Positions 44,886-49,238 of a stretch of DNA of 64,000 nt are shown here, piece by piece (within the stretch, counting starts at the first letter, position 1; each line of letters starts with the position of its first letter). A program made the translations under genes and the position numbers. The stretch comes from an uncultured Gammaproteobacteria bacterium. Lineage in GTDB: Bacteria > Pseudomonadota > Gammaproteobacteria > Xanthomonadales > Xanthomonadaceae. A model generated the notes under the pieces. The model worked only from the letters and a program-made list of their open reading frames with translations, was not told where the DNA came from and ran no database searches. Location of the stretch: positions 32,816 to 96,815 of the forward strand of contig CAVSCB010000013.1 of the NCBI GenBank assembly GCA_963726305.1, in the 5' to 3' direction.

Positions 44886-46563
44886 CTACAGGGAAGCGCG
44901 GCGACGTGCACTCCGGCAATCGCGCGGCCGGATGGATCGGCGGCCGCCGCGAACGACGCATCCCAGGCAATCGCCGTCGGCGTCGAGCAGGCGATCGACG
45001 GACCGCCCGGCACGGTGTGCGCGCAGCTCTCGCCCGGGAAGGCCTGCGCGAACAGGCGGCGATACAGCAGCGCCTCCTTCGTGCCCGGCGTGTTGAACGG
45101 AAATTCCTTCGCCGCCCTGCACCAGTTCCGCATCGCTGATCGTGCGCTCGGCATGCGCCTTCAGCGAGTCGATCCAGCTGTAGCCGACGCCATCGCTGAA
45201 CTGCTCCTTCTGCCGCCACAGGATGCTGTCCGGCAAGGCGCCGACGAAGGCTTCGCGCAAGACGGCCTTCTCGATCTTTCCAGGCCGGGTCCGCTTGTGC
45301 TCGGCGTCCATCGACATCGCGACGTCGAGGAATTCGAGATCGAGGAACGGCACGCGCGCCTCCACGCCCCAGGCGGCCATCGACTTGTTGGCGCGCAGGC
45401 AGTCGTACAGATGCAGCGCATCGAGCTTGCGCACGGTCTCTTCGTGGAAGGCCTCGGCCGACGGCGCCTTGTGGAAGTACAGGTAGCCGCCGAAGATCTC
45501 GTCGGCGCCTTCGCCGGACAGCACCATCTTCACGCCCATCGCCTTGATCCGGCGCGCCATCAGGTACATCGGCGTCGAGGCGCGGATCGAGGTGACGTCG
45601 TAGGTCTCGATGTGCCGGATCACGTCGGGCAGCGCGTCGAGCCCCTCCTGCACCGTGAACTTGAAGTCGTGGTGGCTGGTGCCGAGGTATTGGGCCGCGA
45701 CCGCGCGCCGCGGCCAGGTCGGGCGATCCTTCCAGCCCGATCGCGAACGAATGCAGGCGCGGCCACCAGGCTTCCTCGCGGTCGTCGGATTCGACCCGGT
45801 TCTTGGCGAAGCGCGCGGCGCAGGCCGCCACCAGCGAAGAGTCGAGGCCGCCCGACAGCAGCACGCCGTAGGGCACGTCGGTCATCAACTGGCGATGCAC
45901 CGCGGCTTCGAACGCCGCGCGCAACTGCGCCGGCTCGACCTTGACGCCGCGGGTGGCCTCGTAGTCGCGCCACTTGCGCGTCCAGTAGCGCACCGGCACG
46001 CCGACCCGGCTGTCCAGGTAGTGGCCGGGCGGAAACACCTCGATGTCGTCGCAGACGCCGACCAGCGCCTTCATTTCCGAAGCCACGTACAGGCGGCCCG
46101 CGGAATCGTGGCCCATGTAGAGCGGGCAGACGCCGATCGGATCGCGGGCGATCAGGTAGCGCTGCGCATCCTTGTCCCAGAGCGCGAAGGCGAAGATGCC
46201 GTTGAGCTTGTCGAGGAAGTCGATGCCGTGTTCGCGATACAGGGCGTTGATCACCTCGCAGTCCGAGTCGGTCTGGAACTCGTAGGCCTGGCCCAGGCCC
46301 TTCTGCAGCTCGCGATGGTTGTAGATCTCGCCGTTCACCGCCAGCGCCAGGCCGCCGTCGGCCGATCGCAGCGGCTGCGCGCCGGACGACACGTCGACGA
46401 TGGCGAGGCGCTCGTGCACCAGGATGGCCCGGTCATCGGCATAGACGCCGCTCCAGTCCGGCCCGCGATGGCGTTGCCGCATGCTCTGCGACAAGGCCTG
46501 CTTGCGCAGCGCGGCCAGGTCGACGCCGGCCGCAATATCGAAGATTCCGAGGATAGAACACAT
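44886..46563 (-). CDS. asnB: Glutamine-hydrolysing asparagine synthetase B, frameshifts near 45700 and 45110
   Basis: N-terminal MCSILG (Cys nucleophile), [47 protein letters not shown]. Confidence 0.96.
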
Positions 46564-46587
46564 GGGGTTTTCCTTTTTTGAAGACGC

Positions 46588-46624
46588 AAATGGAAACGGC
46601 CCGCACTGGTTCGGTGCGGGCCGT
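46588..46624 (-). terminator. Attenuator terminator upstream of asnB
   Basis: - strand ACGGCCCGCAC-cgaacca-GTGCGGGCCGT (11-bp stem) followed by TTCCATTT, about 30 nt before the asnB ATG. Confidence 0.75.
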
Positions 46625-46656
46625 CGTAGGATTCAGGGAGTGCTTTAGCGCAGCGC

Positions 46657-46776
46657 CTAATCGTCGACCCGCAGGGGGGCGTTCCGGTTATTGTTATTGA
46701 GATTATTCAGGCGAGCGGCGACCGACCGGAGATTGGCCTGAAGCTGAACGGCAAGGAGGGCGCTGGCGCGGTGCAT
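46657..46776 (-). CDS. Asn-rich leader peptide of asnB (39 aa)
   Basis: MHRASALLAVQLQANLRSVAARLNNLNNNNRNAPLRVDD*; 7 Asn codons in 9 (46707-46681); TATAGT 6 nt before the ATG. Confidence 0.85.
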   Translation of the reverse strand: MHRASALLAVQLQANLRSVAARLNNLNNNNRNAPLRVDD

Positions 46777-46856
46777 GACTCGACTATAGCCAATTACGGG
46801 CTTGGCGCAAGCCCCGGGGCAATGCGAGCATGGGCGCAGAACGATTGGAGCCGTGC

Positions 46857-49238
46857 ATGACTCGCATTCCGCGCCTGTTGCTGCGCTTTTTCTGGCTGCT
46901 GCTGTTGCTGCTGGCATTGGCCTCGCTGGTCGGCTGGTGGCTGGTTCGCGGCAGCCTGGCCCAGCTGGACGGCCGGCTCGAACTGGCCGGCCTCGGCGCG
47001 CCGGTACAGATCGATCGCGATGCGCTCGGTGTGGTCACCATCCATGCCGCCAACGAGGTCGATGCCGCCCGCGCACTGGGCTACGTGCACGGCCAGGAGC
47101 GCTTCTTCGAGATGGACCTGTTGCGCCGCTCGGCCGCGGGCGAATTGTCCGAACTGTTCGGCGCCATCGCCATCGACAAGGACAAGTCGATTCGCGTGCA
47201 CCGGCTGCGTGCCCGCGTCGGGCAGGACATCGGTGCCATCGCATCGGGAAAGATGCCCGTTCTCATCGCCTACACCGAAGGCGTCAATGCGGGCCTCGGC
47301 AACCTGCGCACGCGGCCATGGCCCTACCTGCTGCTCGGCGCCCAGCCGCGAGCCTGGACGCCGACGGACAGCCTGCTGGCCGGCTACGCGATGTTTTTCG
47401 ACCTGCAGGATGAATCCAATTCCCGCGAGCTGGCGTTGTGGCGGATCAGGCAAGTCGTACCGGACGCGCTGTATCGGGTCATCGACTCCGACGGCACCGA
47501 ATGGGACGCCCCGCTGATCGGCGCAGCCCGCGGCAACGTGATGCTGCCGGGTGCTGATTCCCTCGACTTGCGCAGGCTGCCGATGCCGGCGAAAGACCCG
47601 GACAGCGAAGATGCCGAACCCGCCGCGCCAGGCAGCAACAATTTCGCGGTTGCCGGCGCGTTGACAAGGGACCATCGCGCCATCGTCGCCAACGACATGC
47701 ACCTGACCCTGCGCGCGCCCAACGTCTGGTTCCGCGCCCGGCTGCTTTATGACGACGCAGCGGCGGTCGGTGGCAAGGTGGATGTCGGCGGCTTCACGCT
47801 GCCCGGCATTCCCGCCATCATCGTCGGCAGCAACCGACACGTGGCCTGGGGATTCACCAACTCCTATGGCGACTGGCTCGATTTCTATCGGGTCGAGTGG
47901 ACCGATGCCGCCCACTCGCGCTATCGCAGCGCGCAAGGCGAGCAGGCACTGAAAGTCGTGCACGAAAAAATCCTGGTGAAGGGCAAGCCGGCCGAAGACT
48001 TCGTGGTCCGCGAAACGCTCTGGGGGCCGATCACCGAAGAGCTGGATGCCAACACCTCGCTGGCCCTGCGCTGGGCGGCGCAACAGCCGGGCGCGATCAA
48101 CCTGGGACTGGCCGGGCTGGCGACCGCCGCCAATCTTGACGACGCCCTCGCCCGCGCCGGCGCCATCGGCATGCCCGCCCAGAACATGATGCTGGGCGAC
48201 GCCACCGGAAGGATCGCCTGGCGGCTTGCGGCGCAGATGCCGGCGCGCGTCGGCGGCTGCGACATCCAGGCGCCTGTCGATCCGATGGCCGGCTGCGAAT
48301 GGCAAGGCTGGCGGCCCGCCAACGCGAACCCCTCGTTGGTGGATCCACCGAGCGGAAGGCTGTGGACCGCCAATGCGCGGACGGTCGATGGCGACGCGCT
48401 GGAAATGGTCGGCGACGCCGGCTATGCGAACGGCGCGCGCGCCCGGCAGATTCGCGACGATCTTTTTTCCCGGCGGCAGTTCGGCGAACGCGACCTGATG
48501 GCGATCCAGCTCGACGATCGCGCCGTCTTCCTGCAGCGCTGGTGGAAATTGCTGCGGGCGCAGGCCCTGGCTTCGAAGGATCCGGCGTGGAACGCGTTCG
48601 AAGCCGCCACTCGCAATTGGGAAGGCCGCGCCGCGATCGGCTCGGTCAGTTACCGGCTGGTCCGCGACTGGCGCCTGGCCGTCGTCGAGCGCGTGCGCGA
48701 CGGATTGATGGCGCCGGCGCAGGCGGCGCTCGGCAAGGACTTCCTGATGCCTGACCTGCCGCAGATCGAGGGCGCCACCTGGCAACTGGTATCGACGCGT
48801 CCGGCGAATTTGCTGCCGCGAAAATTCGCCAGTTGGGATGCCTTGTTCCTGGATGCCGCGCAAGCGGTTGCTGCCGAACTCGATGCCAAGGGTCCATTGA
48901 ATGAGCGAACCTGGGGCGAGCGCAACGCGGCCTCCATCTGCCACCCGCTCGCCAAGGCCTTGCCCGGCCTGATCAGGCCGTGGCTGTGCATGCCTGCGGA
49001 TGCCCTGCCCGGCGACTTGAACATGCCGCGCATCGCCAGCCCCACCTTCGGCGCTTCGCAACGCATGGTGGTTTCGCCGGGCCACGAGGAGGACGGCATC
49101 ATCCACATGCCCGGCGGCCAGAGCGGCAACCCGCTGTCGCCGTTCTGGGGCGCCGGACATGAGTCGTGGGTGCGCGGCCAGCCAACGCCGTTCCTGCCCG
49201 GCAAGGCCGAGCACTCGCTGACCATCGCCTCGCCCTAG
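46857..49238 (+). CDS. Penicillin acylase family Ntn-hydrolase (possible AHL acylase)
   Basis: N-terminal TM; [24 protein letters not shown] (Ser nucleophile), [17 protein letters not shown]. Confidence 0.92.

Follow-up and report, generated by a model that had tools for sequence, protein, structure and literature searches.

The leader-peptide attenuators of thrL, leuL, ilvL, hisL, pheL and trpL have in common with the locus described here a short open reading frame (ORF) rich in codons for the cognate amino acid, a leader 3' end that mimics the terminator, a GC-rich hairpin followed by a U tail, and a biosynthetic gene as the target. When translation of the E. coli trp leader is blocked, super-attenuation results. 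Asn T-box riboswitches choose between a terminator and an antiterminator according to the charging of tRNA-Asn; the present element, located upstream of asnB, would share with the Firmicutes Asn T-boxes both this input and this choice, but would sense through translation of a leader. The classical attenuation mechanism is restated in PMC10272879, and T-box entries preceding asparaginyl-tRNA synthetase genes are found in the PMC2965389 supplement.

Other relatives in design are lineage-specific. The Corynebacterium ilvB-II/ilvBNC uORF (PMC10272879) was likewise found comparatively, but it carries branched-chain codons and belongs to another lineage; a reference cited in that paper reports that the C. 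glutamicum leader is made without a ribosome-binding site. The Rhodobacterales cysS uORF uORFC-8-2 (PMC8632094) is also a lineage-specific uORF attenuator, but with Cys codons, another gene and another lineage. A cognate-codon sensing tract is shared with the mycobacterial polycysteine sORFs, whose leaderless form is predicted for the asnB leader too; these sORFs act on a downstream ribosome-binding site (bioRxiv 10.1101/834739), whereas the asnB element would switch a terminator-like hairpin far from the start codon.

Part of the element has been predicted before. For five Xanthomonas genomes, Naville and Gautheret (2010; PMC2965389, Table S8) give an unclassified premature terminator at 62-65 nt upstream of asnB, and it is very probably the same hairpin as the one described below. 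That entry has the attenuator annotation '-', with no leader peptide, Asn sensing or antiterminator, and the main text does not mention asparagine. No Asn leader attenuator was found in the open full-text literature, and neither 'asn' nor 'asparagin' occurred in the main texts of the two Breaker-lab surveys, the genome-wide attenuator screen, the leader-gene survey or the mycobacterial Cys paper. The suggestion in an initial annotation of this DNA that an Asn-codon attenuator may be undescribed was not contradicted by the open literature; the Xanthomonas terminator was predicted in 2010 without being classified. There is an appreciable chance, though one well short of even, that an Asn leader attenuator has been described already.

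Results

The asnB locus

The window analysed is a stretch of 64,000 nucleotides, to which all coordinates refer. A gene for glutamine-dependent asparagine synthetase B lies on the - strand (asnB, 44890..46563, end approximate), directly downstream of the leader as initially annotated, and its profile match (NF006949/PRK09431) is that of a PRK09431-type AsnB. Among the matches listed, the closest named relatives of the protein were from Arenimonas and other Lysobacterales MAGs. A Shine-Dalgarno-like AAGGA (46571..46575, -) precedes asnB outside the hairpin, and a motif of this kind was found before asnB in 83 of 96 loci. A divergent gene of the penicillin-amidase family (46857..49238, +; PF01804, E 9.6e-135) lies outside the element.

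The asnB gene carries two single-base frameshifts, near 45703 and 45122, and matched an intact relative in three tblastn pieces with 85-88% identity. Contigs of close relatives from four sequencing runs were one base shorter at both places; because the close relatives are without them, the frameshifts are likely to be assembly errors. The eight runs screened held at most 0.24 of the words, and the four examined yielded relatives' contigs of approximately 92-97% identity and uncertain RNA origin, which are uninformative on transcript ends or levels and were not used as evidence of expression. Several genes between 40080 and 53213 look split by frameshifts, as does asnS of the source genome. From their translations, the split genes are presumably decarboxylase-like, parC-like, asnB, dapE-like, dapD/ArsC-like and glnD-like, and they appear to reflect an error-prone assembly rather than pseudogenes.

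An Asn-rich leader ORF

The 39-codon ORF with eight Asn codons that had been annotated at 46776-46657 (-) was re-derived from the sequence without change (46657..46776, -), and the ORF is kept in homologous loci. Codons 24-32 (46681..46707, -) read NNLNNNNRN, with seven Asn in nine codons, and form the putative sensing tract. Such density is rare in the 3.16-Mb source genome, in which a six-frame scan found 26 windows with at least five Asn in 12 codons and five with at least seven; the asnB leader was the sole short closed ORF among these five. No second Asn leader was found elsewhere in the source genome, which is 60% complete, and none was present upstream of its asnS.

In the sensing window, 10-36 nt upstream of the antiterminator strand, Asn accounted for 52% of the codons across 91 loci, against a background of 2.8% in long ORFs of the source genome. 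Each of the 91 loci had between three and eight Asn codons within 10-45 nt on the upstream side of the antiterminator helix. The share of AAU among Asn codons was 50% in the leaders, 21% in asnB and 25% genome-wide.

The peptides themselves are poorly conserved. Leader length was 20-47 codons in 68 of 70 promoter-anchored loci, with N-terminal parts that could not be aligned, and no leader peptide matched a Pfam or NCBIfam family. Seven of nine leader peptides were absent from a collection of 15 billion proteins, and the other two were named there only as 'hypothetical'. Judged by its sequence, the leader ORF is a sensor and not a protein.

A promoter next to the leader start

A predicted sigma-70-type promoter, absent from the initial annotation, precedes the leader, with a -35 element TTGCGC (46805..46810, -) and, after a 16-nt spacer, a -10 element TATAGT (46783..46788, -) that ends 6 nt before the leader AUG. 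A strict consensus scan had missed this promoter because its hexamers are non-consensus. In 70 of 95 loci a -35 motif TT[GT][AC] was located 34-38 nt upstream of the leader start, and in all 70 the promoter pair preceded an in-frame start with a gap of 5-7 nt; control ATG or GTG codons in the same regions had a promoter pair at 5 of 703. None of the 70 promoter-positive loci had a Shine-Dalgarno sequence in the gap between promoter and leader start. The conserved 5-7 nt spacing makes it probable that translation of the leader begins on a leaderless mRNA, with +1 predicted at or next to its AUG.

Published start-site data from Xanthomonas are consistent with this prediction. In the PMC3300014 supplement, asnB of Xanthomonas campestris pv. 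vesicatoria 85-10 (XCV1490) has a 220-nt 5' UTR by dRNA-seq, and the paper gives 14% leaderless mRNAs for this strain. XCV1533 was considered as the asnB gene of this strain and rejected as a paralogue. In genus g7, taken here to be Xanthomonas proper, 24 of 30 loci had the leader ATG at 220-226 nt upstream of asnB; of the other six, five were without a scripted start and one had an upstream GTG. The 5' UTR thus fits the g7 leader starts within a few bases, as a comparison of distances and not of positions mapped on strain 85-10. The corresponding spacing in genus g9, 211-259 nt, is too variable for comparison with the mapped start site.

Terminator and antiterminator

A terminator-like hairpin of 11 bp with a 7-nt loop lies between the leader and asnB (46596..46624, -; 46624-46614 pairs with 46606-46596), followed by the U-rich tail UUUCCAUUU (46588..46596, -; six U in nine). 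Hairpin and tail are present as first annotated, and the 51-nt segment folds at -24.4 kcal/mol. In the source copy the hairpin sits 33 nt before the asnB start. A simple terminator and promoter scan of the source window called no terminator at the asnB leader, because the tail is imperfect: its first U already belongs to the stem as the final base, and U makes up no more than six of the nine positions. In an alignment of 91 rows, 86.1% of the cells of the terminator stem were paired, with 105 two-sided changes, and none of 500 shuffles scored as high. The hairpin and tail therefore have the form of an intrinsic terminator, and termination at this site is predicted. The U tail is also predicted to fold back on the Shine-Dalgarno region of asnB (46596-46566, -) in both conformers; inspection of ten tails gave no evident sign that this fold is conserved.

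The end of the leader mimics the 3' arm of the terminator. Folding reproduced the annotated 9/9 pairing of this leader strand (46665..46673, -) with the 5' arm (46615..46623, -), together with its CG/CG and UAGG/CCUA extensions. The initial annotation had proposed two mutually exclusive conformers, and on shorter RNA this was borne out: the antiterminator was the minimum-energy fold for RNA ending anywhere from 46615 to 46604, and in the source copy its probability was 0.85-0.99 only for RNA ends from 46615 to 46601. On longer RNA the terminator fold dominated once the RNA reached 46599, even with the leader strand free, and at full length the terminator (-34.0 kcal/mol) was favoured over the forced antiterminator (-27.6 kcal/mol) by 6.4 kcal/mol. 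As equilibrium alone would give no switch, the switch must be kinetic. The antiterminator core had a probability above 0.5 on nascent RNA in 77 of 91 loci.

Pairing between the leader and the 5' arm is stronger than the coding sequence requires. Across 96 loci, the duplex of the last 24 nt of the leader with its own 5' arm averaged -15.0 kcal/mol; synonymous randomisation weakened it to -11.5 kcal/mol (the real sequence being better in 87 of 96) and shuffling to -10.0 kcal/mol (better in 89 of 96). Duplexes formed across loci were almost equal to the cognate ones (-13.4 kcal/mol; cognate better in 67 of 96) because the antiterminator core is nearly invariant.

Covariation of both stems, which the initial annotation had proposed as a test, was found with shuffle controls in the 91-row alignment. 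The 10-pair antiterminator was 75.8% paired with 74 two-sided changes, a score that none of 500 shuffles reached, and slid controls were 36-42% paired; two of five measures, those counting pairs or pair types, did not beat shuffles. The upper pairs were weakly kept, with columns 10, 11 and 19 only 40-55% paired. At pair 14:73, 83 loci have G-C and eight have A-U, the leader change from G to A being answered by C to U in the 5' arm; in these eight the terminator partner stays G and forms a wobble pair. This change weakens the terminator, and only pairing with the leader accounts for it. On a quick AsnB tree (alignment row L001 being partly out of frame) the A-U state needs four changes, at least two of which are forced by well-supported branches; the compensatory changes fall in clusters and so represent a few events rather than eight.

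The spacing of the parts is consistent with control by a translating ribosome. The core G of the antiterminator lay 13 nt before the leader stop in 76 of 91 loci. The edge of a ribosome is assumed to extend approximately 10 nt past the A site, and one at the stop codon to cover approximately 15 nt upstream of it. In this model, a ribosome stalled on the Asn codons frees the leader strand and one at the stop covers it. No 1:2 protector or pause hairpin was evident: in the source copy, ribosome-free RNA formed the antiterminator with a probability of 0.86-0.96.

Conservation and distribution

Conservation was assessed in 110 asnB loci, comprising the best 30 of an order-wide search and the best 80 of 336 found species-wide. 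Three had too little upstream DNA, leaving 107. A closed Asn-rich ORF and a hairpin preceded asnB in 103 of these top-scoring loci (101 by script and two, L081 and L107, by eye), so that the in-frame Asn tract, whose loss in relatives had been named initially as evidence against the attenuator, is conserved. Removal of five duplicates from the 101 gave 96 loci and 91 distinct alignment rows. The four loci without a leader (L032, L033, L036 and L039) are all labelled as outside Xanthomonadales and encode AsnB proteins 79-85% identical; three of them have an upstream reading frame that ends 5 nt before asnB.

Because this set is biased towards near relatives, the other 71 order-wide asnB matches were also examined (one was too short). 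With a strict filter, the element was present in 20 of 22 asnB genomes of the source family f1 (the source genome itself uncounted), six of six of f2 and 18 of 20 of f12, or 44 of 48 in these families together, against one of 51 in six other families. Every further locus examined in two genera, 21 in g9 and 30 in g7, carried the Asn tract. The comparison across Xanthomonadales called for at the outset thus upheld conservation in three families but showed the element to be rare in six others; on these sequences, it marks three families and not the whole order. One genome, G029, passed the scripted filter and was rejected by eye, its Asn codons being scattered over the last part of a longer frame.

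A covariance model trained on 46 loci was used to search 141 genomes, with 25 candidates scored per genome. It gave 29 matches of at least 52 bits, each in a different genome and each immediately upstream of asnB, of which 15 were outside the training set; the next best match scored 38 bits. Sixteen lower matches inspected for a second Asn target were instead generic terminators and three ilvD leaders.

Some individual loci depart from the common pattern. In a complete 2.8-Mb f1 genome (L125, G071:C1:131597-132157) the leader looks decayed, with a GTG start, three scattered Asn codons and a weaker hairpin, the promoter being still recognisable. Only one of 24 f7 asnB loci has a clear Asn leader (L132, G188:C49:28254-28814), a 22-codon Asn/Thr-rich ORF with a terminator, which could reflect either transfer or independent origin. 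The whole leader-asnB unit was also found in three Gemmatimonadota MAGs and a Nannocystis isolate (L049, L052, L054 and L110), which suggests that asnB was transferred together with its control element; mis-binning of the MAGs is also possible.

Supply of asparagine and Asn-tRNA

Among 201 genomes of the order, asnB was found in 101 and gatB in 89, with no overlap, and asnS in 197. In the families that carry the element, asnS was found in 25 of 25 (f1), eight of eight (f2) and 24 of 24 (f12) genomes, and no asnA was found in 101 genomes of f1. The source genome (60% complete) contains a frameshift-split asnS and gave no match to gatB. Carriers thus have the gene content of direct aminoacylation, and since they have AsnRS and no gatB was found, decoding of Asn codons should track free asparagine. 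By gene content, carriers have no identified source of asparagine other than AsnB and no identified route to Asn-tRNA other than AsnRS. In half of the order, asparagine may be made on tRNA alone even though AsnRS is kept.

Discussion

The element is real and conserved and, as judged from comparative sequence evidence, very probably functional. It can be held with considerable confidence to be an Asn-sensing leader-peptide transcription attenuator of asnB, with predicted read-through when charged tRNA-Asn is scarce. In the proposed mechanism, transcription would start at or next to the leader AUG, as the promoter spacing indicates, and a ribosome would load on the leaderless mRNA. With ample asparagine, the ribosome would reach the stop codon and cover the leader strand 13 nt upstream, so that the terminator could form and transcription would be expected to stop near 46590. 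With little asparagine, the ribosome would stall on the Asn tract and leave the leader strand free; this strand would then trap the 5' arm before the 3' arm exists, a presumed kinetic trap, and the polymerase would pass the U tail. The AsnB produced would restore asparagine, and charging by AsnRS would close the loop, a feedback suggested by the gene content observed.

Alternatively, the leader might sense asparagine while acting on translation or on Rho-dependent termination, with the hairpin serving as a pause or as a gate for the ribosome-binding site or Rho loading. An output of this kind would suit the interrupted tail of the source copy, which can fold back on the Shine-Dalgarno region of asnB, the 19 of 96 loci with five or fewer U in 9 nt, and the translational action of the leaderless Cys sORFs of mycobacteria (bioRxiv 10.1101/834739). 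It is nevertheless unlikely, as the asnB start is 22-186 nt downstream of the hairpin and in no case part of it, 77 of 96 tails have at least six U, and an independent terminator finder called the hairpin in the five Xanthomonas genomes (PMC2965389, Table S8). The fold between tail and Shine-Dalgarno region is moreover predicted in both conformers, and is therefore not switched. If transcription is indeed attenuated, the signal could be translation stress in general or more than one amino acid (Asn, Arg and Ala), given that Arg and Ala make up 14% and 11% of the sensing-window codons and that eight of 91 leaders have only three Asn codons in range. Arg and Ala are, however, expected at 66% G+C, whereas Asn is enriched approximately 18-fold against the composition bias and the regulated gene makes asparagine, and this broader signal is accordingly considered quite improbable.

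The similarity of the last residues across many leaders could instead point to a functional small peptide or a TnaC-type arrest peptide, the hairpin being merely its terminator. The C-terminal likeness follows the RNA motif, however, which survives in another frame in a few loci, and the pairing beats synonymous recoding; with lengths of 20-47 codons, an unconserved N-terminal part and no Pfam or NCBIfam family, a functional peptide is very improbable. Least credible of all is a chance conjunction of an A/C-rich promoter-proximal patch with a common GC-rich terminator. Many hairpins of the order have this core and gave weak model matches, but more than 100 loci share the in-frame start, the Asn tract, the stop and their fixed spacing, and three relatives that lack asnB (G044, G192 and G185) had no model match above 25 bits. 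The conservation, the comparison with synonymous recoding, the antiterminator covariation and the specificity of the model already contradict chance.

The attenuator favoured here differs from the classical examples in its Asn codons and target asnB, in being probably leaderless and in having no visible 1:2 protector. Judged by sequence, every feature of the class that can be examined in this way was found except the protector hairpin, and its absence separates the element from the trp subtype, not from attenuators generally. Because ribosome-free RNA forms the antiterminator, blocking translation of the leader is predicted to give read-through and not super-attenuation.

No Rfam 15 family matched the element at its cut-off in the search that the initial annotation had proposed. 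Seven further loci gave no Rfam match. Nearest by sequence was Thr_leader (RF00506; 23.2 bits against a cut-off of 55), with the hairpin agreeing with the terminator consensus at 23 of 29 positions; since only the hairpin shows this sub-cut-off resemblance, the element is not a member. Four Thr_leader matches elsewhere in the source genome were all below the cut-off and all ordinary terminators, and none of the matches up to E 10 was to the T-box covariance model. On balance, it is probable, with less assurance than attaches to the mechanism itself, that the elements form an undescribed family of Asn-sensing attenuators and the first for this amino acid: leaderless, two-state and kinetic, built on the GCGGG/CCCGC scaffold of the thr and leu/ilv leaders. 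Such a family would control the sole route to asparagine identified in Lysobacteraceae and in two sister families, and would have been carried along with asnB into Gemmatimonadota and Myxococcota.

The underlying mechanism of attenuation is itself textbook. If the assignment is correct, asparagine becomes one of the few amino acids that classical attenuation reads, and the regulation of asnB is explained in a large bacterial group associated with soil, water and plants. The AsnB of Xanthomonas oryzae is reported to be controlled by DSF/Clp and to have links with virulence and with resistance to oxidative stress (cited in PMC13054055); an unrecognised leader layer would therefore matter for the interpretation of that work. 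An attenuator that is leaderless and has no protector would also offer a compact system in which to examine the kinetic control of termination and the coupling of transcription and translation from the first nucleotide, and the leader could serve as a biosensor for asparagine.

Leaders for other amino acids were seen in the same genomes. Ile/Leu/Val-rich leaders with terminators precede ilvD-like genes at L195 (G016), L196 (G116) and L203 (G098), in families without the Asn leader. In the source genome, a leuA-like gene has upstream of it a promoter of the leaderless type, an ORF of 47 codons rich in Leu, Val and Ile, and a terminator (G000:C9:184752, +); the end of this ORF mimics the 3' arm of the terminator, which marks it as a candidate sister attenuator of the same design as the Asn element.
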